From Takakia lepidozioides (taxonomy: Eukaryota; Plantae; Bryophyta): a DNA stretch of 64,000 nucleotides. The position numbers and the translations under genes are program-made. The stretch is taken from the NCBI GenBank assembly GCA_030704615.1, contig CM060733.1, positions 39,122,001 to 39,186,000 on the forward strand, in the 5' to 3' direction. Below the pieces are notes generated by a model. The model was not told where the DNA came from. It did not search any database and worked only from the letters and a program-made list of their open reading frames with translations. Below are positions 15,401 to 38,410 of this stretch, piece after piece; the first letter of the stretch is position 1, and the number at the start of each line of letters is the position of its first letter.

Positions 15401-17720
15401 GTTCACCCCTGCCTTTATACGGATAGCATTTTCCTTCTCCTGTATGAAGTTCCACAGGTTGGATTTTGCTATATTATAGTTTATGAGAGTACAGGGCCCT
15501 TCATCTAAAGTTGCTCTCCCAACAGTTGTTGGCAAAGATGGAGGCATTTGAGCAAACTTTTTTCTTTTTGGGAGCATGCTAAAGCGAGGCTTTGGACAAT
15601 TCCTGGGCTCTAATCCTGGTTGCCTCGAGCTTGGTAAGGAATCTCAGGGTTGCAGATTTCAAAAGTGTTTCTAGATGAGGACCACATCTGGGCTAGATCA
15701 TTGACCGTTGCCTTAGATTTAAGCAAGGACGGGTTAAGCTTGAAGTAGCCTCTACCTTTGGATCTAGAGCCTGGAACAGAAAAGAGAGCGCCTATCTCTG
15801 CATGGTCAAAATTAGGGAGCACTGGGCCCATTGGATTAAGCTAGGTCCAAGGCATTATGCCACTAGTGCAGTATAGGCGATCTAATGTAGCCATGACCAG
15901 ATCCGGTGGAGCTCTGCAATTTGTCTAAGAGAATCGCAGTTGGTCATCTCCTGGGATGGAGATGTCAATAAGATCCACAGATAGACAAAGGGTTTCCCAC
16001 GCATTACTTTCCTCGGGGGTGAGGCTGGAGGTGCCAAGGTTCAGCCTGTCCATAGCCCTTTCAGCCATATTGAAGTCTCCAGCCAGAATCCAATGTTCAA
16101 TCTCAGGGTGGCTCAAGATCTTGGAATGCAAAAGATGCCAGAAAGCAATCCTATCAGCCACAACATTGGGAGCATAAATATTAATGAGGCCTATTTTACA
16201 TCATGTACTAGGAATGGAGAGAAGACCAAATTGCGCTCTACCAGTCATCCAGACATCCATTACAGAGATATAATTGGCCAGATTTGGGGATACTAGAATA
16301 GTTGTGCCACCTCTAGAATCGGCTACAGTCTTATTCCACCAAGCAAGATTGGCTGGCCACAACATATTTCCCAGGGAGGCTATCTTAGCATCATTAAGTT
16401 TATGTTCCTGTAGGAAGATAATAGAGCTTTCAGACATCAAAGAGGCAACCCAACGTCTAATCTTGGACTTTTTTGGGGCAGAGGCTTCAGAACCTATGCC
16501 CCTTATATTCCAAGATCTGATGTTAAATAACATTAACTTGAGGGAGAGGGCTCGAGAAAACTTCTCGAAATGATAGCCCTGATGAGGAGAAGAAGAAGAC
16601 AGGCCTTCTGTCATTGGGGGGGAGGGGGGAGAACCAGCTAAATCCGGGGGGGGGGAGGTGGTGTAGAGGTTAAATGCCAACCTACAGGGGTGTTCCCTGG
16701 ATCTTTTTCGTCCTGACCTTGAACCACTGCAACAAATTGTGTCTTCTTCCTTGAAATAACCTTACAACATTTAATGATATCTTTGAGCCCTAGCCAGCAA
16801 GCAAAGCTGTGAAGATAACTTTCTGAAAGCAAGTTTCTTCCTGGGAGATAGAAAAGATGGGGCAGAATTTTCCCAAGCGGATGCCAGCTAGCCAGGACCT
16901 GACACTTGTCAGGCAAGTGAGAAGAGCAACAGATGAAGAGGGGGAAGGCAGGGTAGGTGGAGCTAACCAGGGGAGAGCCTCCAAGGGTTGAGGGAGAGGC
17001 GGCGGACGGAGACGGCAACTGATTTTTTTTCGGCGAGCAAGTATAGGGCTGAAAGCCCGAGTTGGTGTCTTTTGCGGGACTTGGTGAGGTCACCAGCTGA
17101 GCGGGGCGGGGCAGGGCAACAGCAATACCCAGAACTGCATCGGCGAGGGTGAAGCCTGCAGCGATGACCTTTATGCTCCAACCTCCTACGGACGGGAAGC
17201 CATTACGAGGTTGAGCAACATCAGCGCCATTGGCTATGGCCTGCCTTGTGGACCATGAGAAAGAACCTGCTTTAGTGTTGCCACCTCCAATATCCTCCCA
17301 TCTGAAGGCGAGAAGAACGTTGACCGTGGAAGCAACGTCAAATTCTGGGGAGTTGTCCTAGATGCCCCGAAATGCACTGTAGTGTTGTTGGAGAGCATGA
17401 ACTGGAAGGGTTCCTCTACAAAGAGGGTGCCCACTAACTGAAGGCATAACTCCACCGCCTTGGAGTTTGGGTAGTACGTTTTATGGTGAGAAGTGATCCA
17501 GGCACTTACCAATCCCTCTTATCCATTAGTGAGCATAATAGATGGGGGGCGGTTAGGACCATCGAGCATGCCATAGATTATAGGAGTAACTTTGACCACT
17601 GCCAAGCTGCGATGCACGACATTATGATCAGGGGACCATTCGCAAAGTTTCAAGTTTGCAAAAGAACGCAGGTCCAAGCATCTAGTGGCCAGATTAATAA
17701 GCCGCTCATCCTCAGAGTCA
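12450..17720 (-). mobile_element. L1/Tx1-like LINE, decayed (ORF1 remnant, APE endonuclease, RT, zf-RVT)
   Basis: Endonuclease motifs SWNIRGIG, IFLQEHKL and WILAGDFN. RT motifs PGLDG..EFFR, NYRPIML, LDFEKAFD, VRQGCLLSPYLF and YADD. Many frameshifts. Confidence 0.93.
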
Positions 17721-17729
17721 GAGTAAGGG

Positions 17730-19035
17730 CAAGCTTGGACTCCCTACAAGTGATGTGGAGGCCTCTATTGAAGTGCGTTCTGCCAAGGGAGAACCACAAC
17801 TGGCGACGAGGGTGGCGTTCGATGTCCCTCTTCAGCTAGGGAGTTGGGAAGGACGTGAGAACTTCACCATTTGCGAGATCGATGGAGTGGATCTCATTTT
17901 GGGGATGTCATTCCTGAGCAAATTCGGAGCGGTCATAGATGGCCGCAAGAGAGTAGTCACGCTGCCGTGTTGGAATGGTAGCGAAGTTTTAGGGGTGTCG
18001 GATATGCCCAACCATGTGGGCGGGCGAATAAACCTGTTAACAGTGAAGGAGTGGGTCGTGGAGGAGCCACATGAGCCCAAGTTTTTGTTTTATGTGAGGC
18101 AAGTGGTAGGAGAAGTCGATAGGGAGTTGAGCCCATATTGGATCAAGGAAATCTTGGAGAAATACCAAGATGTGAGGCCGGAGGATTTACCAAGCTGTTT
18201 GCCACCTTGAGGAGGAGTCGACCATAAGATCGAGGTGATACCGGGAATGGAGCCACCTGACAAGGCGCCCTACCGGTTGAACCATAGAGAATTGGTGGAG
18301 TTGAAAGAGCAGCTCAAAGACCTTATGGCAAGAGAATACATCCGGCCAAGTAAGTCACCTAATTATGGAGCCCCGGTACTATTTGTAGGCAAGAAGGATG
18401 GGACACTGCGGATATGTGTCGATTACAGGGCTCTAAACAAGGTGACTATAAAAAACCGGTACCCTTTGCCAAGAATTGATGACCTCTTCGATCGGTTGGC
18501 AAGCGCGAAGTATTTCAGCCGTATCGATTTACGCTCAGGTTACCATCAGATTTGGATAGCGGAAGGAGATGAGGAAAAGACTGCGTGTAGGACAAGGTAT
18601 GGTTCGTACGAGTTCTTTGTAATGCCTTTCGAACTCACCAACGCGTCGGCGACCTTTTAACACGCTAATGAACAACCTTTTCTAGGAGCGATTAGATGAC
18701 TTTGTGATCGTGTACATCGATGACATCTTGGAAACTCGAAAACAAAGGAGACCACTTGGAGCACCTCAAAAGGGTATTCCAGAAATTGCGTGAAGGGAAG
18801 CTCTTACCAAAACTTCAGTGCGAATTCGGGGTCACGAAAGTGGAGTTCATAGGACATGTGATTACACAGGATGGGATCAAAATGGATGACAGAAAGGTGA
18901 TGGCGATCTTGGACTAGGAACCTCCAATTTCGGTCGCGGGAGTGCGATCATTTCTGGGACTCGCCTACCGAAAGTATGTGAGAAATTTCGGCAAGATCGC
19001 GGGGCCGCTGTCAGACCTTCTATGTAAGTCCAAGG
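17730..19035 (+). mobile_element. Ty3/gypsy chromovirus A, left part (protease, RT); 5'-truncated and interrupted by element B
   Basis: [50 protein letters not shown]; contains stops and frameshifts. Confidence 0.92.
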
Positions 19036-19665
19036 TGTCAAGGACGAGAACATGACTGAACACAAACAAGAGATAAGACTAGAGGTACAAGGCTAGACAA
19101 GGAGTCAAGGTCGACGTGGCCGAATGCACGATGAGTAAATAGAAATCAAGACGATCTTTATAACAATGAACAAGAGTACAAGATATTGGAACACGACTTG
19201 AATAATGGAATGCTGGAAACTGGACTAGAGTACCAGATACTGGAAACTGGGCTATGGTACTGGGAACTGGACTGGAGTACTAGGAACTGGAAACAAGAGT
19301 AGCTTGAACTGGTGTTGGCGAGACTGAAGAGTGTCCAGTCTCGCCTCTTATATATACTAGCTACTAAGAAGCTTCCCCTGTGGAGGTAGCTTGCTGGAGA
19401 AGTTTCCAAGATTAAACAAAGGTTTCTTGATGGAGAAGTTTTATCCAAAGGAAGTTTCTTGAGTAGTTTCCCAAGTTACTCTTGGTAATTTGGTAAACTC
19501 CCGGTAACTTGGTAAGTAATGATAAATCATGCTAGATCATGGTAAATCACGGTAAGTCATGGTAACTTCTGATAACATGATAACTTGGTAACTTCTGGTA
19601 ACATGATAACTTGGTAACTTCTGGTATTTACTCTTGATAAGTTCCTCTAGACTATGTCCGTGACA
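19036..19665 (-). repeat. 3' LTR of element B (630 bp, TGTCA...TGACA)
   Basis: Near-identical to 35938-36511 and similar to 57723-58234. Contains a TATA box and GGTAAC-type subrepeats. Confidence 0.93.
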
Positions 19666-20267: not shown

Positions 20268-23200
20268 TTATTGACGTGTAGCTCGGGGCTTAGCTGGATA
20301 TCGTTGATGAAACTCTTGGACTTTGTTAGATGCATTGGTGAGGTTGGATGAAGGTTCCCACGTTTGTTCGCTGATGTCGTAGCCTTTCCAATGTACGAAA
20401 TACTCAAGACGTTTATACTTGATGCGAGAGTCTAGGACTTCGTCAACTTCATACTCAATTTCCTGATTGACTTCGATTGGTGGAGGTGGTACGGAAACTC
20501 TCCCTAGAATATTTGATGGATCATACAACTCCAATAATGAAACATGAAAGACTGGATGGATGCGCATACTTCGTGGGAGGAGTTCAAGCCAAAAACTGAC
20601 CGGATTTATTTGTCGAATAATTTTGAATGGGCCCAGGCGTTGATAATCCAACTTCCTTGATGGTTGCGAGGTTTGTATGTCCCGTCGAAGAAGCCACACA
20701 CGATCTCCGACCCTGAACTGGGGTTGGAGTTGGCGACGTTGATCTGCATACTACTTGTATTGTTTTTTAGCTTCTGCGAGGTGGAATGTAAGCTCCTTGT
20801 GAATCGTAGCAAAATGAGTAGCAAGGTTATCTGCAGCAGGGCTTCCAACAGTTTTCATGTGGAAAGGGTTTGCTCGAGGATGATGACCATAATTGGAGAC
20901 AAATAGAGTTTGCTTAGTCGAAGAATGTATAGTGTTGTTGTAGGCAAACTCAGCCAATGAAGGTCCGTCCACGTATCTTGGTGATAATTTATCGTACAGC
21001 GAAGATACTGCTCTAAAATCTGGTTTACACGTTCGGTTTGACCATCAGTCTGTGGATGATTAGCTGTAGAGAGGTTGATCTTAGTATCCAATATGTGAAA
21101 ATAATCCCCTCCAGAAATTTGATATGAACTGTGGTCTTCGATCAGATACGATGTCCTTCGGGAGTCCATGAATGCGGTAGATATTATTGATGAAGAGTCT
21201 TGCAGTTTCCTCGCTGGTAACCGTCTTATTACATGGAATGAAATGTGTCATATTCGTAAAACGATCTACAATAACAATGATTGAATCGGTAGTCTTGGAA
21301 ATTGGAAGGTCCGTAATAAAGTCCATAGACACGGACGACCATGGACCCTTGGGAATGGGTAATGATTGAAGAAGGTCGTAAGGTCGATGTCGTGGTCCCT
21401 TTGCTCTAGCACACGTGTCGCAAGATTTTATAAATTCTTTTACAAATTTTCACATCTGCGGCCACCAATAGTCCCTGGATATTAACTCCATTGTTTTGTT
21501 GAAGCCGAAATCAACTGCAGCCGGAAGATCATGACATGTTTGAAGAATTCGAAATCGTGTAGGTCCTGGAGGTACATAGAGAAGTCCCTTGAAGTAAAGT
21601 AAGCCATCTTTGAATTCGAAGTCGTTTGTAACATGTGGGTTGTCTCGAGGTTGATTTAGTTGACTTCGTAGTGTCGTAGCAAAATGGTCGCTCTTCAGTG
21701 CTTCCTGAATCTCCTTTATGATTTCTGCATCGTAGGTGGACATGGATAGCATATTCAATTGGAGATTTGCTGGTTTCAAGATGATGGATTTATGTTGGTC
21801 AAAAACTGCATCCCCTTCTTTTGGCGCAAGATACAATCGTCGAGAGAGAGCATCTGGTTTTCCTTGAAGATGTCCGGGACGGTAGGTAATAACAAAATCA
21901 AACCTTGCTAGTGACATACTCCATCTTGCTTGACGTCGATTCAAAACACGAGCACTCATAAAATACTCGAGGTTTTTGTGATCGGTATAGACAGTGACAT
22001 GATGTTTAGTTCCCTCCAATAGATGACGCTACTCCTCAAAAGCATCGATAATCGAAAGAAGTTCTTTGTCATGGATTTCATAATTGATCTCCGCAGCGGA
22101 AAATTTGCGAGAACGAAAACCAACAGGGTGGAGTCGGCCATCTGTACCGTATTGTGAGAGTACCGTGTCAAGTGCAAAGTCCGATGCATCTGCTTTTAAG
22201 AAGAATGGTTTAGATGGGTCTGCATGTACCAGTATTGGAGCCGTTGTAAATGCCTGCTTCAGCATTTCAAATGCCTGGTCAGTCTTCTCATCCCATAAAA
22301 ATTTGTCATTTCCTGTGAGTCGTGTCAATGGTGCAGCAATTTTGGAGTAGTCATTGATGAACATTCTATAGAAATTTGCAAAACCCAGAAAACATTGTAC
22401 ATCTCGGACCGAAGTTGGTTTAATCCACTCGATGATGGTTTGTATTTTTTTTCTGATCCATAAAGACGTCTTTGTTGGAAATAATGTAGTCCAGAAATTC
22501 GACCTCAGATTGATGGAAAAGACATTTCTCCAACTTGGCATATAGTCCTCTTTCTCTTAATTTGTCAAGGACAAGGCGTACATGGCGGCCATGTTCTTCT
22601 TCGTTCTGTGAAAATATCAAAATGTCGTCCAAATAGATAACTACAAAGTCATCTAAAAATTCTCGAAAGATGTCATTCATCATATGTTGGAAAATTGCTG
22701 GAGCATTTGTAAGACCGAAAGGCATAACACTGTATTCAAAATGTCCATACCTTGTTTGAAAAGTTGTTTTCCATTCGTCTCCTTCTTTTATCCGTACAAG
22801 GTTATAAGCTCATCCCAAGTCGATTTTGGTGAAAATCTTCGTTCGTCCCAGCTGGTCGAGAAGCCCAGAAATCAGCGGCAACAGATAACGATTCTTGATT
22901 GTGACTTTGTTGAGACCGCGATAGTCGACACACATGCGTAATGATCCGTCCTTCTTTTTCACATATAAGATAGGCGCCCCCGCGGGTGATTTTGAATGTC
23001 TGATGAAGTGCTTTGACAAATTTTCATCAATGTATTCGCGTAATGCAGCCAACTCCGTCTGGGATAAGTTATAGATTGGGCCGAATGGTGGTTGGGCTCC
23101 TTCTTGTAACTCAATTGCACAGTCATAAGGTCGATGTTCTGACAATATGTCTGCATTTTTCTTCTCGAAGGCATATTTGAAATCTTGATATTGAGCGGGT

Positions 23201-23700
23201 AATGTTGAAGTACCTTTATCTGTTGTGGTCTTGATCGGAGTCGCATAAAGTGCAAATGCCGCCTCTTTTTTGGTAGCTCTCATGAAGGCTCTAGCTCCAA
23301 GAAACAAGGGTTGAATACCTTTGGTACTTTTGCATTTTTGTCTTGCCGAAATTTTTCGTGATTGCCAGTCGATGTTAGGATTATGAAGTACCAACTAGGG
23401 AAGTCCAAGGATCATAGGATTCGTTGGAGACTGGATGACATTGAAAACAATCTGTGATGCTTGATTTTTAAGCTTCACTTCAAGGGGTCGAGTTTCATGT
23501 CAACATTTCCCGATGCTAACGGTCGTCCATCAATATCTTCAACAAGGGCCGATAATTTCTTTCTTACGAGCGTTAAATTGTGTTGCTTCGCAAAGTCTTT
23601 GTCAATAAAACACGCTGAAGCGCCCGAGTCCAAAAGTGCTTCTACGGAGATATCTCGATTTTGCATCCTGATGTTTACTGGAACTGTGAAACAAGATACA
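20268..23700 (-). pseudogene. pol of element B (PR-RT-RH-IN-chromodomain), frameshifted
   Basis: ORFs 23475-23666, 22810-23394, 22420-22725, 22029-22541, 21450-22019, 21081-21332 and 20268-20699 (EYEVDEVLDSR..YFVHWKGY..TWEP). Confidence 0.93.
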
Positions 23701-23938
23701 GGGTCTGGAGGTAGAAAAAGACCTTTTTTTTTTTAGGAATTTGGGGTGTCCAGCCGCGTGGTCCCTACTATGACTGGACATCTTCGTTTTCCGACCTCCT
23801 CGTATCGAACACTTGAGTGGTGCCCCGAGCTTTGAATCTTCTCTTGTTGGGGCAGTTTAATGCCATGTGATCATTTTCTCCACAATAAAGGCATAATCCA
23901 TTCGAGCGCCGTCTTTGTTTTTCATGTGACGTCAATGG

Positions 23939-24116
23939 TGTCGTGCGCATACATATCGCTACACAACTACATCGCTGTCCAAAACCACACAACACATGTG
24001 CACACCACACACTAGTATACCACTAGTCCACCACTAGTCCAGCCACTGGTCTAACCACTAGGCTACAACTAGTCAGTCACTAGGCTGCCACTATGCTGCC
24101 CACTATGGCAGTCACT
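23939..24116 (-). repeat. Terminal repeat A of element C
   Basis: Matches 24435-24600 apart from a 12-bp indel; lacks the first ~10 bp of the PPT-adjacent copy. Confidence 0.92.
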
Positions 24117-24610
24117 GATAAAGAAGAAGAATACAAGCACGAGCTCACAAATCTGAAGCATAAACTCATGCATATATAATCTCATCACTCAAATACAAGT
24201 CAAGCCAAGTGCACCCCACGCCATGGGGAATCCACACTACGGCGCCATAGCTAGGCGCGGTGAGGCTCAACTCGAGAAAGATGAGCCTTCCGCGCTTGCC
24301 ATGAAGATAACCACTCCAGGGCCTAAATCTGCCTTGACCCCTGGATTGACACTTGGGCCAATCCCAAATGTCAATATGTAAAAGCTAGCTATTTCCTAGC
24401 TAGTTTCACACTAGTGGTAAAATAACTTGACAGCTGTCGTGCGCATACATATCGCTACACAACTACATCGCTGTCCAAAACCACACAACACATGTGCACA
24501 CCACACACTAGTATACCACTAGTCCACCACTAGTCCAACCACTAGGCTACAACTAGTCAGTCACTAGGCTGCCACTATGCTGCCCACTATGGCAGTCACT
24601 AGTCCACACA
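24116..24610 (-). repeat. Complete 495-bp LTR-equivalent of element C (A-GC-B), preceded by a PPT
   Basis: Minus strand reads AGGGGGGCGAT then TGTGTGG...TTTATCA. Part A (24435-24600) is repeated at 23939-24116; part B (24116-24432) is repeated at 34717-35033. Confidence 0.8.
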
Positions 24611-24634
24611 ATCGCCCCCCTAGCTGGTGCTTAG

Positions 24635-24775
24635 GTCCTCTGTGGGTCTGCCAAAGGGGCAGCCACCATGCTGGTGTGTGATCGATGCTCAAGGGGTTGG
24701 CATATGGGATGCTTGACACCACCTCTTGAGAAGGTTCCTGACGGAGATTGGTTGTGTCCACACTGCTTGGAATAG
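24635..24775 (+). pseudogene. PHD finger (C4HC3) from the integrase C-terminus of element C, in an inverted segment
   Basis: + strand reads VLCGSAKGAATMLVCDRCSRGWHMGCLTPPLEKVPDGDWLCPHCLE*. The first Cys is lost at the breakpoint with the integrase end AVVPAGLR (25007, minus). Confidence 0.88.
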
Positions 24776-25006
24776 TGGCAGTGGACATGACTGGAGGCAG
24801 CTAACAAGACATGGGAGGCCAAGCTCATAGGAGTCAATACATGAGATCCCAAGCTCAAGTTCACAGGTTGCAAGACGGACGACTAACGATGGGGCAACTC
24901 TTGCACCCGGCCTCTTAATCTATCGAGTTTGAGTGTAGTAGGGATAGTGGTGGAGGACTTAGTGAGGCTATGGTCACTATCACATCTTGTGGCTACCTGG
25001 ACTTAG

Positions 25007-27570
25007 ACCTCAAACCTGCAGGTACCACTGCCAAGTTTGGGTCAACTCTGCCATCGACATTGGGAAGGTGATATGGCGCACAATTAGGCACATGGTCCTT
25101 CCAAGTCATGCCATCCCGACCCTCCAAGATCAGGACCCCTGAGGGCAACACCTCTCGAACCCTCAGAATAACACGCCCTGCAGTAACATCCAGAGTCGTA
25201 GGAGCAGTCTGCTGCAAATAAACATAGTCACCAGGGCTAAACCTCCGAACCCCAGGACGATATCCTCCACCACGTATAGTGGCATACCTCAACGTATCAC
25301 GGTGCTGTGCAATGGCAAGGTTCTCAAAAGCCATGGGCATGACTTTCTTGAACAACTCTGCACGCTAATCACATGCACGTACCCACACGTCCGGATCGTC
25401 AAGGTTAAGGACTTGAGCAGTGTCCCTACGAATGGCTGCAGGCAAATCCGGCTCTCGGCCAAAGAGAAGGAAATATGGTGAGAAGGAGGCAAGTGATGCT
25501 TGTTTGCTGAACCTGTAGCCCATGGCTAACCAAGGAACCTGAAGATCCCAATCTCCTAGGTGTCCCTTCTGCAAGCCATACTTGCGCAAACCTCTCTTCA
25601 CCGTCTGAACAACTCTCTGCTAAGCCATCGGCCTCAGGATGATCCCGAGAAGTGGTGCGGTGGTCTATCAAGGCTTTATCACACAAAGCCTGAAACTCCC
25701 CCAAGAACTCTCTCCCTTGGTCCGTGAGTACCTCAGCTGGAGCACCAAATCGGCTAAGCACACGATCCAAGAATGCATATGCAGCCCCCTCACTAGCCTT
25801 GTCAGGCAATGGAGCCAACTCAATCCACTTGGAGAAGTGCTCCACCATCACCAACACATATCTGTGGTGGCGCATAGTCAGTGGCAACGGTCCTGCGAAG
25901 TCAAGACTCCACCTGTAGCCCAATCCCATGATTGGTAAAGGATGCAACTGTGGTGTAGGGGTGTTGAATGAAGCACGCACCCTGTCACACACCATGTACC
26001 TAGCCACGAACTGTTGCACCTCTGTATGCATACCACGCCACCAATACTGCCCCTGCAGTAAACTGTGAGTGCGTCACACTCCAACTCAATCCATCCGCAT
26101 CCCGATTGACCAAACCCGGTCGATGCACAACCTGAAAGTCATACTCCTGGAGTATAAGTGCCCACCGTGCAAGCTTCCCCGTAAGCTTGTCTGACTTCAT
26201 CAACCACTTGAGTGGCTGGTGATCCGTGACAAGGGTGAAAAGATTGCCGTATAGATAGCACCTGAAGTGTGCCACGGCCCACACTGCAGCTAAGCACTCT
26301 CCCTCATATGAGTTGTACTTAGCCTCTACAACGTTGTTCGAGCGGCTAGCGTAAGCCACTACGAACTCTCTTCCCTCATCATCCACCTGTGTGAGCACCG
26401 CTCCAAGCCCCAGCATGCTCCAATCCGTATGCAGCTGAAAGGGACGCCCCCTGATAGGTCGTCTCAAGATAGGCGTCGAGGTCAACCTCGCCTTGAGCTC
26501 TTGAAAAGCTCGTTCCTGCTCATCTTCCCACTGCCACTCCTGGTCCACCTTGGTCAGCTTGGTTAGAGCCTTTGCAATGGTACTAAATCCCTTGACAAAC
26601 CGTCTATAATAGTTTGCCAACCCCATAAAAGCTCGAACTCGGCTCACATCCGTGGGGCGTGGAATTTGTGCAATGGCCTCTACCTTAGTCTGCTATACCC
26701 CCAATCCTCCAGGATATATCATGTGACCCAGATACTCAATCTGGTTGTGGAAAAACTTGCACTTCCCCGGATGCAACTTCAATCCGTGCGCTCTCAAGCG
26801 CTCCAATACCACCTGAAGGTCTCTCATGCTCCTCCATCGTAACACTAAAGATGATGATGTCATCTATGTAGCACCGAGCAAAGTCCACCCCTGCTAGAAT
26901 CCTATCCATGACTCTCTGAAACTCTGCAGGAGCATTCTTAAGCCCAAATGGTAAGAACCGCCACTGATATAGGCAATCCTTGCCGTGCTCATTGATCCCC
27001 CAGAATGTCGTCTTCTGCTTGTCCGCCTCCTTGATTGGCAACTGGTGATATCCGGATCGTAAATCCAAAGTACTAAAGGCCTTAGCATGCCCGATGGCAT
27101 CAAAGATCTCATCTGGTGTTGGCATGGCATACTTATCGGACTTGGTCTGACGATTTACAGGCCGGTAATCACCGCACATACGTCTCTCCGTCCAATTGCC
27201 ATAGACATCATTCTTGCCTGGCATCACTGTGGCTGAAGCATACTCTCCACCAGAGAGCTCCACCCAACCTGCCTCCCAGAGATCTTGAGTCCTCATCTGG
27301 ATCAAAGACCTCTCCATGTTACTGTATCTATAGGGTCTCTGAAAGATTGGCGTGTCAGTGGCCAACTCAATACGGATCTCTTGACCCTTCAGTGCTCCCA
27401 AGTCCTTCAAACTGAAGGCAAAGCAATTCCTGTAAGCCCTCAGGAACCGCCGTATACATCGTCTCTCTCCTCCGGTGACAATGGGTCCAATGTCAGGCTC
27501 CCAATTGTTCTCCGTAACTACAACCTTAAGTCCAGTGGGCTTAGAGATAGAGGACGCGTCCCGTGGTTGC
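25007..27570 (-). pseudogene. RT, RNase H and DDE integrase of element C
   Basis: RT: [33 protein letters not shown]. RNase H: LHTDWS, EGECLAAVWAV, VTDHQPL. Integrase: WSLDFAGP, VLTDQGREF, DGLAE. Confidence 0.95.
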
Positions 27571-27869
27571 TATGTTGCAAACTCTTGAGCAGTACTCCCT
27601 GCCTGCTCAGTCAATGACAAGACCTCATCCTGCCCCATCATCTCATCATTGAGGACCTCTTCAACCCGAGAAGAATCCCCAACCTCATCTATCACAGCCG
27701 CCTTGGCTGCCAACTCCCTCTGAACCTCGAGCACCTCCCACGTGTGCCATGGATGCATGCACCCCGTGGTCCTCACATGCTCGCCCTCACTCACTGCCTG
27801 TACCGTCTCGGTAGGCAGAGAGATCATTGAGGGAAGTGTACTCCGCACTCTGCGTTGCTCAGCCAGAGC

Positions 27870-28830
27870 CAAGCTGATAATCCAGGTCAAGCAATTGAGA
27901 TCCATTGCTTGCCCCAACACTTGACGACGTGATGCCTCAGAAAGAGATGACACCGCCGTGGTACCAGTGGTAAAACCCATTGCCCACTCACGCTCGTCAG
28001 CATTAGGCTCCACTAACTGCTGCAACTGAGCATCCCACAGGAGGCCAGGTCCACTATCCCGGAAAGCATGCGATCCTGGGAAGCTGAGCAGTGTAGGTAA
28101 TGCTGCCCGTGGTTGACCCACCTTGTTGACCACTGCCAAAGGCGAACGGTCATCGTGTCTCACACGCTGAGACTGCCTCCCTGTGTCCAGAATGTTATCC
28201 ACTGTGAGATGTGCTGGCCGCTGCACCCCATCAAATGCATGCTTGAGCAGTGCGGGTGGCATCAAGTTAGTCCACCATAGCCGTGGACGATGAGCTCGTG
28301 ACCCCACTGTAGCTGCATCTAGCAACACTGCTGACCCAAGCCACGACCGGACTTGATGCACACTGGCCATCACCCTGGCCCAAGAATCATCCATCAGTGG
28401 CACATTCTCCAAGATGTATGCTGGAGATACAGCTTGATGAAGCTGCAAGTGGCGCAAAAACCCGCACCATCTCCCAAAACAGACCCGACCTCGAGTCTCG
28501 CAATCCATTGACATGCCCGGCTGATGAATGCCCTTGGCAGGGCCAACCTGCCACTACTAGATCAATGGAGCCAACCCGCTCCAAATCCTGTGCCCCCAGC
28601 AACGAAACGTCTGCTGGCAAGGCCTGCTGATATCCACAAATTGCAGACACCGACAACAACTCAGGGTACCGCTGCACCAACTGAGCAACATGGCGAAGTG
28701 AAACGCGTCGTGCAGTCTCATCCCTCTCCACATACAGGTAACGCCGAACTCGTACACCTGCTTGTAACACAGCAGCCAATCCGGTGCTGATCCCGCCAAA
28801 CAAGTCCAGAAGACAAATGCCTTCATCCGG
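27870..28830 (-). pseudogene. C5 cytosine DNA methyltransferase domain (DNMT3-like) within pol; one +1 frameshift at ~28456-28460
   Basis: Motif I LLDLFGGISTG, II YVERD, IV DLVVAGWPCQG, GLFWE, VI ILENV, VIII AHRPRLWWTNL, IX EREWAMGF, X RRQVLGQAM, in canonical DNMT3 order. Confidence 0.92.
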
Positions 28831-29149
28831 ATACTGCCACACAATAGATGTGGTGTCCAATGGAGACAATTGAGGTGGTCCTGGTGCAATCCCCACACTC
28901 TCCTCCTCTCCTGACGGTACAAAAGCCTCCACCCAGGCTTGTTGCACTCGTCGATCAGCATCCCGCTGCAAATCCTTGCTCGTGCCCCACAATGGAGTCT
29001 GAGCAACCATGGTAGGCAACTCCGCCATACCATACATGTCATCCTGCTCTCCCGGAGGTGGTACATCCTCTGAATGAGCATTGCCCTCAAGCAACTCTCT
29101 AGGCCAACTCACTACCGTTGTGAGTGCTGCTAGTGTCGGCATCTTGCCT

Positions 29150-29541
29150 CGCTGGGCAACCGCAATTCCTCCTATGAACGTCACAAGGAGCTGCACACGC
29201 CGGCCCTCCCCTGACTGCCATGCAGGCCTATAGGAAGCTGACTCCTCCCAAAAATCCAGGGTGAAGCCCATGGGGTACAACACTGCCCCACCAACCAGGA
29301 CATCGTAAGAGACCGCGTCTGTCACAATGGCCTTGGCTCGCATCACTGAGCCATCTGTAGGGTGATCCAGCCGTAGTCTGATAGCCAACTCACGCCGTGT
29401 CATGCCCCGAGCTTGCTCCGATCCTCCCAGAGACGTCTGTATCTGGAAAGAAAAAGGCTCCATATCCGCCTCCGTGAGGCCCAAGCCTGCAATAGCAGCT
29501 CTGCCCAGCATCAGTGGCTGAGCTCCCGAGTCCAACAAGAC
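29150..29541 (-). pseudogene. Aspartic protease of element C
   Basis: VLLDSGAQ...YDVLVGG, in frame with the DNMT (ORF 28387-29538). Confidence 0.88.
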
Positions 29542-30370
29542 TGACGGGCTGTGAGGGGCTGTGACAGGCTGTGCCCAATGGCGTGTGGGGCTGTGACGGG
29601 CTGTGACAGGCTGTGCCCAGTGGCCTGTGGGACTGTGACGGCTGTGACCAATGAGCTGTGTGGGCCTGTGCTGGTCTGTGGTGGCCCGTGTTGACCTGTG
29701 GACGGCCTGTGCTGACTCGTGGAGGCACTGGTGGACTGCCTAAGGACTGGCATGTGGTCTGGAAGGCCGAATTTTGAAGCTCGTGGAGGGCGGTATGAGG
29801 AGTATCTTCATGATACTCCCATGGTCATGCAAGTGAGGAAAGAGAGGAGAGGAAGAGTGTTGGGATGAGGGCATGCTGGGGTTAGGCATTGCTTTAGCTT
29901 CTCTTCCTCGTAGTTTCCACCCTCTCATTAGGCCAAGACTTTTCCGTAGGTGGAGGCAAGAGTCAGTCCGGGTTTGGGCTAGGGTGTCCTTGCAGGAGCA
30001 ACACCGTGGAGTTGTTTTTGGTGTGGGGGAGTTGTCGTTCTGATTTCTTGTGTTTGGATCCCCTCCATACCTGCATGCTTGACTGTGCGCCATGCTAGTT
30101 TTGTGTGGGCGCTTGTTTTTATAGGTGATTGGTCCGGATTTGATCACCGACCAGTCCTAGAGCATGCTGTCGATGGTGAGGCTGGGGTGATGACCAGCCA
30201 GACCATCATTGTTTCTCCTGTGGTGAGGTTGGAGGTGATGACCAGCCACCATAGGAGTGCTTGCGGTGGATGCAGGTACAGGTGTAGGCTATGTTAGGAA
30301 CTTAGTATTCCAAACCATAAGCCGCAACAGGTTCTCTACCTGGTTACCTTGTGGAGAGGGGGTTAGGGAC

Positions 30371-32572
30371 ATGTTCATGACCGGTTGAGTGTCAACACGG
30401 AGGTGCCACTAGTTGCTGGGGATAGTGCCAGTTCGAGCACTAGCGATACTAGTGGGTACACGAGACGAGGTGTGCGGTTTAGGCCACCTTCACCTCCTGT
30501 GTCTTCTACGGAAGGTTCTGATTCGGATTGTGAATCAGGAGGACTCATACCGGCGGTGCAAGTTGTTTCTTTGCCATTGTTGTGGGACACAATGGAGGAG
30601 ATGTATGGAGCTACCAAGGGGCCACTCTAGGGCGGTGGGCACCATCAAGGTGGATGATTTTATCCAAGAGTTTGATAGTTGGTGTGATTTGCAGCAAATG
30701 CGCAATCCACAACTATTTACGCCTTTCATGGCATGGAATGGGCTGTTTCAGCACCTTGAGGGGCCGCCTATGGATGATTACCATGAGTTCAGGCGGAGGC
30801 ATGAGGTTGAGATCGAGGAGTGGAGGATGTACTGGTCACCCGACTATGTCTCCATCACTAGGGGCACTAGAGCCACGAGGGCAGTGGCTACACCTGCTGC
30901 TGCACCGGCAGCTTCAGCAAGTAGCAGAGGGACTAGTGGGACTGGTGGTACAGTAGCTACGACGTCCACCCAAGCCACTACCGCACCAGCACTAGTACCC
31001 GTGCCTGCCTTCAACCCTGTTGTGGAGTTCTTCGAAGAGTTGAGAGGGAACTACCAAGGGGTGAGGACAGAGAAGTTGCGGAGCTTGCAAGAGTTCCAAC
31101 GGAAGCCGACCGAGAGCTTGAGGGAGGCTTTCACTCGCATGAGGCGCTTGATAAATGTAACCCAAGGGGTTACGGAAGCTCAAGCAGTCCAATTCTGGTA
31201 TGGGATATTGGACAAGGAGTTGAGGAGAAGGGTGCGGGATGCAACTCTCCTACAAGCGGCCCAACCCACCTTAGCAAATGTGTTTTTGCTGGCAGAGCGG
31301 ATAGAGCTCAACATGGTGGAGGAACGAGTGGTCATGGTGGGATTTGCTAAGGAGACACCACGGGGTAGTGGTGCTCCTAGCCAACCACTACCTCAACGTG
31401 CTCAAGGCAACAAGGGGGCTCAGGTGAAGCTCAGGGAAGGGCAGAGAGGACCTCAGATGCAGGTCTCTCCCTTCATTTGCTGGCCAACAACGGGCGGATG
31501 TGGTGTGCTGGACATGTGGAGGACCCCATGTCAAGAAGGATTGCCCAGAGGGAGGCAAAGGGTCGGCACATGCACAGCCTGCACAGTTGCACTGTGGGCA
31601 TTGTGGCAAGCACGGGCATGGAGAGGCCCAGTGTTATGGTTTGTATCCTGAGTTGCGCCCAGGCCAGTTCCAAGGGAACAATGGTGGCCGGGGGCGAGGT
31701 GGAGCAGCTCAGAGAGGACGAGGTGGCCAGCCACGAGGCCAAGGGCAAGCTCAACGTGGCCAAGGACGCGGGGGTCAGGGTGTTGACCAAGGCATGGCCA
31801 ACCGGCTTCAGCAGCTAGAGCAGAGGCTCGCTGCCATGGCTACAGCTCAGGTGGTACCGGCTCTAAGGCCGGATGGTCCACCTCCTGCTCCTGAGGGAGG
31901 AGATATGGGAGGCATGGGATTCATGTGTGGGGCAGCACTACCACTAGTGCAGGTGGAGTCTGCTGCAGCCGTGACTCGAGGAGCAGCACGAGTTCCTGAG
32001 CCACGAGGTGCAGAGGTGGAGTTGGATCCACAACGTGGGGAGGCAAGCCGTCAGGCTAGGCTTCCTCAGTCATTCACATTGGCGGAGACAGTGTCGACGC
32101 CATCCATGGCACCTAGTTCTCGCCTGACTGTTACCGAGGCGGAGGTTACTATGCCATTGGGGAGAGCTACACGGGTAGCACCACTACCTAGTGTTGTCAA
32201 GGCTACGGCAGCTAGTGTGCTGCTAGGAGCGGCCACATCTGTGTGCCAGGCTCCATTGTTCTCGACTACCATGATTGCGACGCCGGGGTAAGACCAGCTG
32301 AGGTGTTCAGGCTGGCAGCTACACTCTGTGAGAGTGAGGAGGTTACTTCAGCTTCTGCGGAGATAGTGGGAGGTGTAGTGCCGGAGGGATCCTCGGATTT
32401 GAGGGTCAAGACTGCCACGGCGGCGCCATGGCAAGTTGCAGCTGCCAGGTTGATGGAGCTGCCAGCTAGGCCAGCCATTGAGCGCGCCATGGTGACACCT
32501 GGAGTTGTCATGTTAGACAACCAGGATGACATTTTCTGTTTGAGTGGACCGGCACGCAAGAGGTACCGGCCC
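30371..32572 (+). pseudogene. gag of element C with zinc knuckles, inverted relative to pol, frameshifted
   Basis: Capsid-like LRSLQEFQRKPTESLREAFTRMRRL. Knuckles CWTCGGPHVKKDC and CGHCGKHGHGEAQC. Ends at KRYRP, which would join VLLDSG if re-inverted. Confidence 0.85.
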
Positions 32573-33182
32573 AGCCTGTCACAGCCCCACAGGCCTCAGG
32601 CACGGCCTGACACAGCCCCTCACAGCCCCAAAGGCCTCCGGCACGGCCTGTCACAGCCCCTCACAGCCCGTCACAGCCTCAAAGGCCTCCGGCACGGCCT
32701 GTCACAGCCCCTCACAGCCCATCACAGCCCCAAAGGCCATGGGCACAGCCTGTCACAGCCCCTCACAGCCCGTCACAGCCTCAAAGGCCTCAGGCACGGC
32801 CCGTCACAGCCCGTCACAGCCCCAAAGGCCACTGGCACAGCCTGTCACAGCCCCACAGGCCTCAGGCACGGCCTGACACAGCCCCTCACAGTCCTTCACA
32901 GCCCCAAAGGCCTCAGGCACGGCCTGTCACAGCCTGTCACAGCCCCACAGGCCTCAGGCACGGCCTGACACAGCCCCTCACAGTCCTTCACAGCCCCAAA
33001 GGCCTCAGGCACGGCCTGTCACAGCCCCTCACAGCCCGTCACAGCCCCAAAGGCCACAGGCACGGCCTGTCACAGCCCCTCACAGCCCCTCACAGCCTCA
33101 AAGGCCTTAGGCACGGCCTGTCACAGCCCCTCACAGCCCATCACAGCCCCAAAGGCCATGGGCACAGCCCGTCACAGCCCCA
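32572..33182. repeat. Minisatellite of TCACAGCCC units in ~36-45-bp higher-order repeats; continues inverted at 29542-29700
   Basis: Repeated GGCACGGCCTGTCACAGCCCCTCACAGCCC; reverse complement seen at 29542-29650. Confidence 0.95.
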
Positions 33183-33659
33183 TCCATGGCCGCTCTGGCA
33201 GTTTAGCCATTTCTCCAAGGGGTTTAGCCACGCCAAGCTAGGGTTTGTGTCTCTTGGACTCTAGGCTTCTTTCCACCGAGCTATGGCGGCTGTGAGGAAA
33301 TCAGCAAGGTATTCTTGCTCTTTTGGCTCCCACACACCACCATAGTAGCCCTAAGCCATGAGGTGGTTGCCACAAACCAAGCCTTCTTTCTCACTTAGCC
33401 TCCCCAAACACGCCACTAAACTCAATGGCAAACAACCAAGCCCTGCTGGTTCCCAGCCCTTGTGAGCACTCATTCAAGCACTCTCTTTGGCCATAGCATC
33501 TGTCTTAGAGCCTATTCCAGCCCCCTACACCTGCTGCTTCAAGAGTTGCGCTCCCTTCAAGCTTGAAGTTGAAACCCCAACTCACATAGGCCCTACAAAT
33601 GCTTTTCTTTCACTCCAAGTGGAAACCAGCCCTAGACCTTCCGTTCTAGCTCTCTAAAG

Positions 33660-34030
33660 CTTGAAAACAAGAGCCTCAATGGGCTGAAGGCATGCTCCAC
33701 ACATGCCCCACTCTCACCATAAGAGAATCAGCTCCTTTGCTTCATTTCTTGCACCCACAAACCTGAAAATACAAGCTTCAGCAGGCTGAAAGCATGCTCC
33801 ACATGCCCTACAGAGAAACCAGCCCCTTCCTTCCTTTCTTGCACTCCCACACCTGAAAGTGCAAGCCTTCACCAGGCTGATAGCATGCTCCACACATGCA
33901 TTGCCCTCACATAAGGGAAGTCAGCCCTTCCCTCTTCCTTGCTTGCCCTCCAAGCTTGAAGATGGAAGCTTCAATGAGCTGAATACATGCTCCACACATG
34001 CAACCTCTTCACACAAGAGATATCAGCCCC
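33660..34030. repeat. Four degenerate ~100-120-bp repeats in the leader of element C
   Basis: GCTGA..GCATGCTCCACACATGC core at ~33683, 33785, 33876 and 33978. Confidence 0.7.
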
Positions 34031-34672
34031 CTATCTTGGCTCCTTGGCTCCTTGATGCTCTCTAAGACAAGACTAAGCACTCCACAGCCTTTGCCAAGCT
34101 CTTGAAACCCTAAGGCTTACATTTCCAGCCACAAGACACTTCTCTTGTGGTGCAAGAGCTCTTCTTCCAAGCTCTGAAACCTTAGGTGCACATTCCATGG
34201 CCTTGCCGCACCTCTTAGCTCCTGTTCCAGCCCTGCTCTTGCCATGACAAGAGCCCTCTCAATGCTGAAGCTCGAGATTGAAACCCAATCTCACCATACT
34301 CCACAAAGTGCACTGATTTGCCCCAAGCCAAATCGGCCCTTTCGCTTGGTCTTGCAATCCTTCACACAATGAAAGCTCGCATTCCCAAGTCCAGTTCTCA
34401 GCTTTGCCACCAAAGCCACTATAACCTGCTCTTAACTGGTCCTCTTCCCAATCGTGCTTGCTCATGCATGTACACAATCTGGAACCATCAAGGTGCTCTG
34501 GAATTACCTGCAACATGGTGCTTTCATCTCTGAAGCTGAAGATCGAATGCCAAGGTCTACCACCTCGTAACCCACAACGCCTCCGCTTCTAACAACCAAG
34601 AGCTCCACGGTGCTCCTTGCATAACAACTTGGTTTCTCTCATTCTCAAGCAAAAACCACAAGTGCTACAACT

Positions 34673-34896
34673 AACTCGTATCTGGCACTCACAGATACGA
34701 GCTGATCTTTCTCGAGTGATAAAGAAGAAGAATACAAGCACGAGCTCACAAATCTGAAGCATAAACTCATGCATATATAACCTCATCACTCAAATACAAG
34801 TCAAGCCAAGTGCACCCCACGCCATGGGAAATCCACACTACGGCGCCATAGCTTGGCGCGGTGAGGCTCAACTCGAGAAAGATGAGCCTTCCGCGC
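34673..34896 (-). promoter_or_regulatory. Candidate structured self-priming site of element C
   Basis: 34705-34717 is the exact reverse complement of 34871-34883, the loop of a stem-loop at 34856-34896. A 10-bp hairpin lies at 34675-34701. No tRNA-type PBS is seen. Confidence 0.55.
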
Positions 34897-35033
34897 TTGC
34901 CGTGAAGATAACCACTCCAGGGCCTAAATCTGCCTTGACCCCTAGATTGACACTTGGGCCAATCCCAAATGTCAATATGTAAAAGCTAGCTATTTCCTAG
35001 CTAGTTTCACACTAGTGGTAAAATAACTTGACA
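34717..35033 (-). repeat. Terminal repeat B of element C (317 bp)
   Basis: Matches 24116-24432 with about 5 substitutions. Confidence 0.93.
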
Positions 35034-35937
35034 ATGGCTTGAATTGGACAACATCAATCTGCATAGGATCATTACCGGATGTCTGATGAATCGTTGTATT
35101 TGGTGCTGTAGTAGCAGCGGCATGGTGCGTAATCGTCCATCCAGATCGCTTCTCTTGACATCTTTCGAACAAACGATTATCGCATGCAATGACTTGGGTG
35201 ATGAATTCGCTCAGTGTACTCACGTTTGGCATTGTCAGCAACAAATCTTTAACATCATCTTTTAGGCCACATCGAAACTGACTAATGAGGCTCTTCTCAT
35301 TTCAGTCAAGGTCGCACGCAAGTTGTCGAAATTCGGCAGCATAAATGGAAGCTGGACGTGCTCCTTGTCGAAGATGTCGCATATTTGTCTCTGCAACTCT
35401 ATCTCTATCATTCTCTCCAAACGTTGCAGTGAACTCGGACATGAACGCTTCAAAATTGTATAGTAAATGCAAATTTTTCTCTAATAGCGGTGCAAACTAA
35501 GATAGGGCAATGTCTAATAGAAGGGTGCCCACGAATCCCACTTGAATACCTTCATCAGCGTAGCGTTGTGGATGTAGTCGTAGGAACAATCGTACTTGTT
35601 GAACAAAACCGCAAAATTTTGATCTCGTCCCATCAAATTTCTCGGGCATGTTAACATTTTGTTCCCTTGTAATCTGTTGAAGATTTGGAGGAATCGTTGC
35701 AGTAGGATTTGTTGTAGTAGGGACTCGTAAGGTTGAAGATCCATTGTTCGACTCAACTCTGAAATTTGTTGTTGCAAATTGTTGAGAGCATTGCCAAGGT
35801 CTTGAGACTGATCAGCTTGTAGTTGGGCAGTAGAAGTTCTTGCATCTGGAGCTGAAGACTCTGTAATGTGGCGACCATTTCTGCAAATGTGCCTTCCATC
35901 TTAACTAACTAATGAACAAATTTTAGTCTCGTCAAAC

Positions 35938-36511
35938 TGTCAAGGACGAGAACATGACTGAAAACAAGAGATAAGACTAGAGGTACAAGGCTAGACAAGA
36001 AGTCAAGGTCGGCGTGGCCGAATGCACGATGAGTAAATAGAAATCAAGACGATCTTTATAACAATGAACAAGAGTACAAGATATTGGAACACGACTTGAA
36101 TACTGGAATGCTGGAAACTGGACTAGAGTACTGGGAACTGGAAACAAGAGTAGCTTGAACTGGTATTGGCGAGACTGAAGAGTGTCCAGTCTCGCCTCCT
36201 ATATATACTGGCTACTAAGAAGCTTCCCTAAGAAGCTTCCCCTATGGAGGTTGCTTGCTGGAGAAGTTTCCAAGATTAAACAAAGGTTTCTTGATGGAGA
36301 AGCTTCCTTAAACAAATAAGGTATCTTGATGGAGAAGTTTTATCCAAATGAAGCTTCTTGAGTAGTTTCCCAAGTTACTCTTGGTAATTTGATAAACTCC
36401 CGGTAACTTGGTAAATAATGATAAATCATGGTAGATCATGGTAAATCACGATAAGTCATGGTAACTTCTGGTAATAACTTGGTAACTTCTGGTATTTACT
36501 CCTGGTAAGTT
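35938..36511 (-). repeat. 5' LTR of element B, outer ~24 bp deleted
   Basis: Matches 19036-19642, then fuses directly to the RNase H of element A. Confidence 0.9.
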
Positions 36512-38410
36512 TCACGGACAATGTCACGTGAGGTATTTTACCACACGGCCTAAGTTGTCCCCAAAACAAATTAGGTGACAAAACACTTTGGCATTGTTTG
36601 ACGTGGATATTCAGTACAAGCCATAACGGGACAATGTAGTGGGCGATGCTCTAAGTAGAAAACAACAGCTCATGTTGGTGTACAGAGGCAAGACAACGCT
36701 GCAAAGGAAGATACGAAAGACTTACCGGAAGATGAGATGGCGAAGTCCGTGATGCAGGACTTCAAGCTAAGAGTTAAGTCGCAGTTCCACTTCCACAATG
36801 GACTGCTCCGGTACAAGCGAAAGCGTCTCTACGTGCCGAAGGGAGGGCTCAGAGATAGTCTCTTGAGGGAATGCCATGATGGCCCGCTTGCGGGCCACGG
36901 CGGGGCGCACCACGACACTCTTGAAGAAAGAGTATTTCTGGCCCAAACTAAGGGAAGAGGCTGAGGAGTATGTCAAGACATGCACCACATGCCAGCAAAA
37001 CCGAAGCAAGTACAAAAAACAAGCGGGGATGTTACAATCTTTGCCGATTCCAAAGGGGCCTTGGGATAGTGTTTCAATGGATTTCATGACGACTTTGCCG
37101 CTGTCAAAGGGATTCGATGCAATCATGGTGGTGGTGGATAGGTTCAGCAAAATAGGCCATTTCATCCCCACTAAGGAGACGGCGACGGCGCAAGAGATGG
37201 GGCGACTTTACTTCGCCCACGTCTTCAAACATCATGGACTCCCGAAGGATATTGTTTCAGACCGCGATCCGAAGTTTACAAGTAAATTTTGGAGGGCACT
37301 TTGGAAGAAGATGGGGACGAGGCTCAAGATAAGCACGGCCTTCCGACCTACAACAGACGGCCAAACGGAAATAGTGAACTCCGTGGTGAAGCAGCTATTG
37401 CGGAATTATGTGTCGGCAGACCAGTCGGATTAGGTGGAGCACTTGGATGCGGTAGAGTTCTGTTATAACACAGAATACTCCGCAACGGGGCTTCTCCTTT
37501 TGTATTGGTCTACGGAAAAGCACCTCTGGTGCTGAAAAGTTGGGCTGCCCAGGACGGTGAGGAGCCTGCGGCAACAACGGTGTTGGAAGAACGCGAGCGT
37601 TTATTGGAGCTCGTCAAGTCAAACATTGCCAAAGCTAGGAAACGTTACGAAAGGCAAGCTAACCGGAGCCGACGGGAGGTTGAGTTTGAAGCTGGAAGGG
37701 AGGTCATGTGGTTGAATATTAAGAATTTTTTACTACCTCTGGAACTGAGTCCGAAGTTCGTACCTCCGTATGTGGGACCTTTTCGCATCTGGAAGGTTAT
37801 GAATGAGGATGTGTATGAGCTGGAGCTGCCGGCGAACAGTAAGGTGCATTCGATATTTCATGCCCTTTTGAAGCCTTACTTCAAAGATAAAGCACGTCTG
37901 AATCGGCATCAAGTGTTGAGTCCGCCACCTGTGCTATTGGATCATGAAAATGAACCCGAGTACGAGGTGGATGCGGTGATTAAGTCGATGAGGTTAGAAT
38001 CGAGAAACGGAGTATCTCGTGCAACCAACGGGGAGAACCGACAGCTAGTTACATGCTAGCCGACTCATTCCGAGGATTTCCGAGTGAAAATTGAAACCTT
38101 CGGAAATTTACCGAGTATGTTCACATAGGAAATTGACTATTGCAGTTACCATTAAGGGGAAGCAATCGACTCCCCAACCCACTTAGCCGGTTGGTTCTCA
38201 GAATGAGGGGCCATTGGCTGGTTCAACTGAAATTATTTCTCGGACGCTGATCTCGTGAAATGGAAGGGCTATCATCAAGTGGAGTAACTTGGGTGCGTGC
38301 CTCAGAAATGGGAAGCGCATCCAAGGCGGTTGTAGCTTTTGAAGGGCGACCTCAAAAGCGGAAGAACCCTTGATGGGGACATCAACCTTGGATCGTGGGG
38401 GAGAAAATGC
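36511..38410 (+). mobile_element. Ty3/gypsy chromovirus A, right part (RNase H end, integrase, chromodomain, PPT)
   Basis: FTDNVT..KLSPKQIR; integrase ECHDG..GH..CTTCQ, SMDFMT, IVSDRDPKF, TDGQTE; chromodomain YEVDAVI..YLVKWKGY..TW; PPT GGGGGAGAAAA at ~38397 followed by TG. Confidence 0.9.
38022..38249. mobile_element. 228-bp hAT-like MITE inserted in the chromodomain of element A
   Basis: 8-bp TSD ATCTCGTG at 38014-38021 and 38250-38257, CA...TG imperfect TIRs. Removing it restores YLV-KWKGY. Confidence 0.8.

Follow-up and report, generated by a model that had tools for sequence, protein, structure and literature searches.

Why a transposon should keep an enzyme that normally silences it has been a question since 2018, and one that stayed open because good genetics is lacking in the algae known as hosts. 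The window analyzed here (the whole stretch of DNA, 64,000 nucleotides) raises it again in what is likely a land plant, as a first-pass annotation had reported a Gypsy retrotransposon carrying a cytosine methyltransferase (DNMT) inside pol.

Structure and state of the element

The element (Table 1) lay in a three-deep nest (window 17450-38056), inside a chromodomain Gypsy that was itself inside another Gypsy. Elsewhere, the window harbored a two-domain LEA_2 gene (3460-5524, + strand), an N-terminal piece of PSF2 (2448-2714, - strand) and, at 512-1093, 13346-16761, 47079-49484 and 57012-58234, part of a Helitron helicase, two decayed LINEs and another incomplete copy of the chromodomain element, represented by gag and a repeat. 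An inverted repeat of about 102-112 nt flanking a 139-nt tandem repeat (10945-11829) is possibly a small non-autonomous DNA transposon.

Table 1. Features of the retroelement, its surroundings and the host gene (window coordinates; A1, A2, B1 and B2 are terminal repeats)
Feature	Position	Strand	Remarks
Whole element, Gypsy-type, 11.1 kb	23939-35033	-	TG..CA ends, order A-body-B-A-B
4-bp target site duplication (TSD)	left 23935-23938, right 35034-35037	.	contigs in two sequencing runs join the flanks without the element
Repeat A1, 5' end	34717-35033	-	putative part of U3, plus R and U5; 98.4% to A2
Predicted self-priming primer-binding site	34705-34717	-	13 nt complementary to 34871-34883 inside A1
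5'-UTR tandem array	32572-33181	-	remainder (29542-29700) moved by the gag inversion
gag with zinc knuckles	30413-32570 (about)	+ (inverted)	frameshifts and a stop; PF03732 weak
Aspartic protease (PR)	29100-29541	-	LDSGA 29521-29535
DNMT3-type C5 methyltransferase	27849-28821	-	one frameshift near 28456
Conserved stop, TAG then CAA CCA	27564-27572	-	TAG 27570-27572; ORF1/ORF2 boundary, likely leaky
Reverse transcriptase (RT) and RNase H (RH)	26100-27500	-	PF00078, PF17917, PF17919; frameshift near 26818
Integrase (IN; zinc finger and DDE core), broken	25007-26073	-	PF17921, PF00665
PHD finger	24635-24772	+	inverted with 3' UTR (about 24638-25006); PF00628 E 1.9e-12
Polypurine tract	24615-24621	-	directly before B1
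Repeat B1	24435-24612	-	putative first part of U3
B1/A2 junction	24429-24438	.	palindrome GACA-GC-TGTC; element ends abutted, 2-nt spacer
Repeat A2	24116-24432	-	
Repeat B2, 3' end	23939-24116	-	without about 13 nt of B1 start
Chromodomain Gypsy around the element	repeats about 19030-19600 and 35938-36494, pol 20271-23394	-	
Outermost Gypsy, split by the chromodomain Gypsy	PR-RT 17450-18657, integrase 36867-38056	+	
Phi-type glutathione S-transferase (GST)	62212-63518		three exons, GT-AG introns

The insertion is young, since A1 and A2 differed at only 5 of 317 sites. The copy, one of an abundant family, is nevertheless dead, with two inversions, a deletion and several frameshifts, and the earlier description of an only lightly damaged fusion had to be abandoned: about 440 nt were absent between RNase H and integrase, additional frameshifts or stops occurred in gag, RT and integrase, and the gag and PHD segments were inverted relative to the family (the intact relative L053 is colinear). 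The two inversions (24638-25006 and 29543-32571) were separate events in one young copy, with one breakpoint in the 5'-UTR tandem array, and may be biological or an assembly fault. In other copies from the host sequencing runs, positions 32571 and 29542, as well as 25007 and 24638, were joined on opposite strands. In the same runs the DNMT frameshift of the window was not common to all copies, and the depth over DNMT was about that over RT (a measure of depth, not of copy number). The window gag aligned with residues 7-633 of the Marchantia protein P0002. Pfam gave no protease match in the window, while relatives did match PF13975/PF13650.

The methyltransferase domain

A DNMT3-like C5 methyltransferase was found between protease and RT, as first claimed. 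On the minus strand, motif I (starting at 28821), motif II and the PCQ of motif IV (28534-28542) lay in frame with the protease LDSGA; past the frameshift came the ENV of motif VI (28401-28409), the AHRPR of motif VIII (28281-28295), motifs IX and X and, ahead of the TAG, a linker. Both this motif set and the single frameshift within the domain agreed with the first-pass annotation. The PF00145 search that it had proposed succeeded for the N-terminal DNMT ORF (35.2 bits, E 1.2e-8; cut-off 22), but the C-terminal ORF alone had no Pfam match. Searched against the PDB, a profile of eight relatives retrieved DNMT3A/3B/3C on top (best E 4.8e-13) with colinear motifs, HhaI at 5e-4 and entries named DRM2 at 0.18. 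The predicted fold of the relative P0161, used in place of the window's own DNMT copy, reached a pLDDT of 91 and matched DNMT3A/3B with a TM of about 0.7; the ESM Atlas returned generic DNA_methylase clusters only. A plant DRM was rejected, the permuted order being absent and motif I coming before IV, VI, VIII and X, which upholds the unpermuted DNMT3-like order already described.

The dN/dS check also suggested in the first-pass annotation pointed to purifying selection. Between the window and the loci of a metagenome scan (see below), pN was 0.21 and pS 0.74, and the median dN/dS of DNMT was 0.10 in the 33 of 70 window-locus pairs that were unsaturated (RT, 0.06). Among loci, it amounted to 0.17 at dS above 1 and to 0.55-0.71 between close, decayed loci, a rise expected after insertion. 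The catalytic Cys was kept in all 64 sequences covering the site and the motif VI Glu in 60 of 66, while the motif IX Arg was altered in 24 of 62, window included (Trp). As judged from these sequences, the DNMT3 domain is almost certainly a selected trait of the family.

A conserved stop between methyltransferase and reverse transcriptase

The TAG, upstream of RT and in the same frame, had been read as a lesion in a single pol ORF enclosing the DNMT, and neither point held. A homologous stop was present in 43 of the 44 sequences traced upstream from RT (46 had an RT match, two being excluded as the match began late), with CAA next in 40 and a sense codon in none; this evidence was drawn from relatives, and several loci represent one insertion counted twice. 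The Marchantia, Calypogeia and two Closterium proteins terminated 61-79 residues past DNMT, and the Marchantia protein P0002 was a single ORF from gag through DNMT. As the stop is conserved, DNMT would therefore end ORF1 (gag-PR-DNMT), and ORF2 would comprise RT-RH-IN-PHD. In the distant relatives P0160 and P0408, DNMT continued into RT without a stop.

ORF2 is probably expressed by readthrough of this stop. The TAG CAA CCA of the window matched CAR YYA, the consensus for TMV readthrough, which proceeds at about 10% (PMC2754532), and the first Met past the TAG lay about 85 codons downstream. No conserved RNA structure was found 3' of the stop in the 10 sequences folded (z -1.15 to 2.0). A fairly unlikely source of ORF2 is translation that restarts at an ATG or GTG close by, or an RNA that is spliced or made separately: the context CAA C(C/T)C ATG, found in 36 of 44 sequences, misses the full CAR YYA and permits reinitiation with its ATG three codons past the stop (GTG in 3), but the window has neither codon there, ORF1 and ORF2 are in frame in intact copies, and the CAA after the stop has been retained across saturated synonymous distance. 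Whichever way ORF2 arises, the methyltransferase would be made with Gag rather than with RT.

Terminal repeats and integration

The earlier reading of the element was incomplete, as it comprised neither the split terminal repeats, nor the self-priming site, nor the PHD finger, all three of which were found. End features of Ty3/Gypsy elements (Metaviridae) were present, namely TG..CA, a TSD within the 4-6 bp range (here 4 bp), a primer site and a purine tract. The ordinary Ty3/Gypsy layout of two complete identical LTRs was rejected, the 5' end consisting of A only and the 3' end of B-A-B. DIRS/PAT elements, which have a tyrosine recombinase, no DDE integrase and no TSD, were discarded because rve, H2C2 and a TSD were present here, and so was Troyka (CG..CG ends, 3-bp TSD, animals only according to the available text of PMC12440569) because of the TG..CA ends and 4-bp TSD.

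The same ends recurred across the family. A 4-bp TSD with TG..CA was displayed by all seven elements with both ends on one contig (one 5' end mutated). The 3' ends of loci were of the B-A-B type in eight cases (one truncated at a contig boundary, another with a partial deletion) and B only in six (five distinct insertions), two reversed B copies being excluded from this count; B stood in front of A in none of 17 5' ends. The B/A spacer was exactly 2 nt in 8/8, with a palindromic GACA-nn-TGTC in seven, apart from one mutated A start. The A/B junction was near-precise in 5/8, carried insertions in 2/8, one of which retained 9 nt of primer-site sequence, and contained a deletion in the window. 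A purine tract directly preceded the first B in 13/13 loci and in the window. For the site after A1, a complement of 10-17 nt lay within A in 12 of 18 cases, 10 of them at one position, and the letters of this complement differed between window and loci.

In standard LTR replication, the replicative LTR is delimited by primer site and purine tract. With the former located just after A1 and the latter just before B1, the replicative LTR would be B+A and the cDNA BA-body-BA, yet integrated copies opened with the start of A and closed with the end of B, and use of the internal CA-nn-TG is therefore inferred. It seems likely that the integrase joins this internal junction and not the cDNA ends. 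Integrases normally make 2-nt overhangs, and overhangs of this length would result if each strand were cut after CA in a staggered fashion. Two insertions, L029 and L059, were of the A-body-B type with clean 4-bp TSDs and are probably a second, dead-end product of the same pathway. Under a symmetric circle model, copies of the A-B-A-body-B type would be expected too, and the 0/17 count is evidence against the simple form of that model.

Alternatively, the split ends could be produced by a DIRS/TOC1-like templated route, in which the RNA would run into B2 and the B/A junction would restore both ends. The integrase would then act on ordinary linear ends, the lack of A-B-A-body-B copies would be explained, and the repeat order is that of split-repeat DIRS elements (PMC5890265). 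This route is rather unlikely, however, as the primer site after A1 and the purine tract before B1 are placed as in LTR-type priming, the A/B junction varies between close copies whereas B/A is constant, and A-body-B copies with TSDs exist.

Proposed life cycle and role of the enzyme

Domain order, conserved stop, purifying selection, catalytic residues, end structure and TSDs are directly established, and a life cycle with internal-junction integration can be proposed around them. The RNA would begin inside A1 and prime itself on the site just past A1. ORF1 would be its main product, with RT-RH-IN-PHD supplied by leaky-stop readthrough. Reverse transcription between primer site and purine tract would yield a linear BA-body-BA cDNA, on which the DNMT, made at capsid level and packaged, would put CG methylation, so that the cDNA would arrive marked like host chromatin. 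The integrase would take the internal B/A junction (CA-nn-TG) as its end pair, and the true ends of the cDNA would be joined by ligation (A/B); one junction of end-joined cDNA would give A-body-B-A-B, and two junctions or a one-LTR circle would give A-body-B, with two outer pieces lost. The PHD finger would steer the element to chromatin with unmethylated H3K4. The whole scheme, from capsid-level, packaged DNMT3 methylating its own cDNA to internal-junction insertion, is favored with moderate confidence, and for the cDNA as the substrate of the enzyme the preference is slight.

The best PDB matches of the PHD finger were CHD4, DPF2/3, KDM5B, PHF21A and ATXR5, with AIRE and UHRF1 lower. PHD fingers of the CHD4, DPF, KDM5B, PHF21A and ATXR5 type read unmethylated H3K4. 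Synonymous-site CpG observed/expected was 0.33 in the element versus 0.79 and 0.77 in the two surrounding DNMT-less LTR elements, but such depletion is not specific to the DNMT element, because both LINEs of the window were equally CpG-poor (0.28 and 0.42). Methylation of new cDNA in CG context as a role was proposed in PMC5890265, where a yeast assay displayed activity of a dinoflagellate Dnmt3 and no methylation by the Klebsormidium enzyme, the latter result not being taken as conclusive.

Instead of the cDNA, the enzyme could have as its substrate the integrated copy or the chromatin of the host or target site; produced in bulk along with Gag, it would enter the nucleus and alter silencing around the insertion or limit copying of the family. 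Animal DNMT3 carries an ADD domain, and the combination of a PHD reader with a DNMT3 domain resembles it; the position in ORF1 implies large amounts of enzyme, and the window copy is nested within other elements. On the other hand, PHD and DNMT are encoded by different ORFs and would likely be separated by protease cleavage, and the methylome of Klebsormidium is ordinary and plant-like (PMC5890265), which makes a chromatin role appear unlikely compared with methylation of the cDNA.

Host and distribution of the family

The best named matches of the GST were Adiantum (76%), Ceratopteris (73%), Sphagnum (71%), Calypogeia (69%) and Diphasiastrum (66%), and all those with a species name, among the matches listed (120 of 1007), were land plants. 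The gene was sister to mosses in one tree (support 83) and grouped with ferns in a second (47/27), outside the seed-plant clade (95/94), in a set comprising neither hornworts nor algae. AU tests rejected no group (moss 0.49, liverwort 0.18, lycophyte 0.16, seed 0.12). The host is likely a seed-free embryophyte, on the basis of this one gene and of the nearest relatives of the element, which were from Marchantia and Calypogeia; the land-plant origin first suggested is thus retained.

A protein search retrieved 25 relatives, of which 16 were from Marchantia polymorpha, one each from Calypogeia fissa and Sphagnum fallax, and seven unnamed. The metagenome scan gave 71 loci, colinear for gag-PR-DNMT-RT-RH-IN-PHD where long enough; these are not independent, several being one insertion in two samples and most belonging to one subfamily. 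With such relatives and a domain under selection, a one-off capture, one of the reservations of the first-pass annotation, is not what was found. Named members further out were Closterium, Mesostigma, Scenedesmus, Haematococcus and Chromochloris. Among 167 fetched proteins with DNMT and RT-RH, DNMT was located before RT in 18 and after RNase H in 149. In a large chlorophyte-type branch (Scenedesmus, Haematococcus, Chromochloris), DNMT3 stood after RNase H and ahead of integrase, and a PHD finger was present as well.

In FastTree trees, the window grouped with Marchantia and Calypogeia for DNMT and with Marchantia for RT (support 100 in each), and elements with DNMT after RNase H formed a group of their own (91 for DNMT, 100 for RT). 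The RT tree was rooted on the window's own chromovirus-type RTs, and the window's LINE RT, which was placed within the ingroup on a branch of 3.2, was disregarded. The DNMT3 domain has shifted position in the polyprotein, and the wider PHD-bearing lineage reaches chlorophytes. Viral contigs yielded one distant C5 methyltransferase (L001:10001-10369, 30% identical to the family) and nothing else. Protein P0024 (1417 aa), with an RT that by eye looked DIRS-type, contained both a C5 methyltransferase of the family type and PF05869, which we take to be a Dam-type adenine methylase.

It is very improbable that the DNMT rides along as a passenger, either without catalytic activity or with a structural role, or that a host DNMT3 was captured just once: although the Klebsormidium enzyme, the only relative assayed, was without shown activity (PMC5890265) and dN/dS is higher in DNMT than in RT, the catalytic Cys is invariant and the domain was kept from chlorophytes to bryophytes in two polyprotein positions, and neither introns nor, in window or relatives, a C-terminal DUF3444 match was found, unlike host plant DNMT3 (PMC6453930).

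Comparison with known systems

The closest described system was KnitGypsy-Dnmt3 of Klebsormidium nitens (de Mendoza et al. 2018, PMC5890265), which was compared by text alone, its Fig. 4c bearing on domain order. Shared features were the Gypsy set PR-RT-RH-IN, an intronless unpermuted Dnmt3 under purifying selection (Ka/Ks below 0.2 there), DIRS-like A-body-B-A-B repeats (Fig. 4c legend) and the key Dnmt3 residues, except for the motif IX Arg changed in the window copy. KnitGypsy-Dnmt3 differs in its algal host and in having Dnmt in the Pol ORF with RT, where a stop intervened here. The PHD finger, self-priming, TSD and internal end junction present here do not appear in the available KnitGypsy-Dnmt3 text. 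The element thus works like KnitGypsy-Dnmt3 but departs from it in one stated feature, the common ORF with RT. As no protein named Klebsormidium was among the matches listed in the protein searches, kinship between the two rests on architecture.

SymbioDIRS-Dnmt3, for which de novo CG methylation was shown by its authors (PMC5890265), also combines a Dnmt3 in a retroelement with A-body-B-A-B repeats, but uses a tyrosine recombinase in place of the DDE integrase, protease and 4-bp TSD found here. Self-priming Gypsy elements of the Tf1/sushi group and plant Tcn1 (PMC6317226) share the LTR-internal primer complement and the lack of a tRNA site, and differ by a chromodomain and ordinary LTRs instead of PHD, DNMT and split repeats. 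Host DNMT3 of non-flowering streptophytes (PMC6453930) has the same unpermuted catalytic domain but a C-terminal DUF3444, and is not embedded in a retroelement ORF as here. DAM-LTR and EpiLTR (bioRxiv 10.64898/2026.05.21.726589) are likewise LTR elements with a methyltransferase and a chromatin reader; they differ by an adenine methylase or a DNMT4-like enzyme with a chromodomain, and are called distinct from the streptophyte Gypsy-DNMT3 in that preprint. Both it and PMC12344493, in their available text, say "streptophytes" and point to earlier work. Within the literature searched (few subscription papers, no Repbase), such elements were undescribed in land plants or chlorophytes, in line with the embryophyte gap pointed out in the first-pass annotation, and no description of the conserved stop or the end mechanism was found.

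Significance

Four aspects appear to go beyond an extension of range: occurrence in land plants, copies in Marchantia, a conserved stop and ends of the internal-junction kind. The conserved stop shifts the expected dose of enzyme from Pol level to capsid level. What the end structure suggests is a mode of integration for which the literature searched gave no description among DDE retroelements, and with such ends LTR finders would miss or mis-bound these elements; their ORFs can moreover inflate the number of DNMT3 genes counted in plants. We tentatively consider a broader reading, which may hold but is somewhat doubtful, namely an unnamed LTR clade spread across the green lineage from chlorophytes to bryophytes, Marchantia included, that would combine a capsid-level DNMT3, self-methylated cDNA, a PHD chromatin reader and a DDE integrase cutting a palindromic CA-nn-TG inside the LTR. 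If true, a retroviral-type integrase would be working by the logic of circle-integrating elements. The Marchantia polymorpha relatives, annotated as hypothetical proteins, bring the question of why a transposon keeps such an enzyme to a model plant with methylation mutants.
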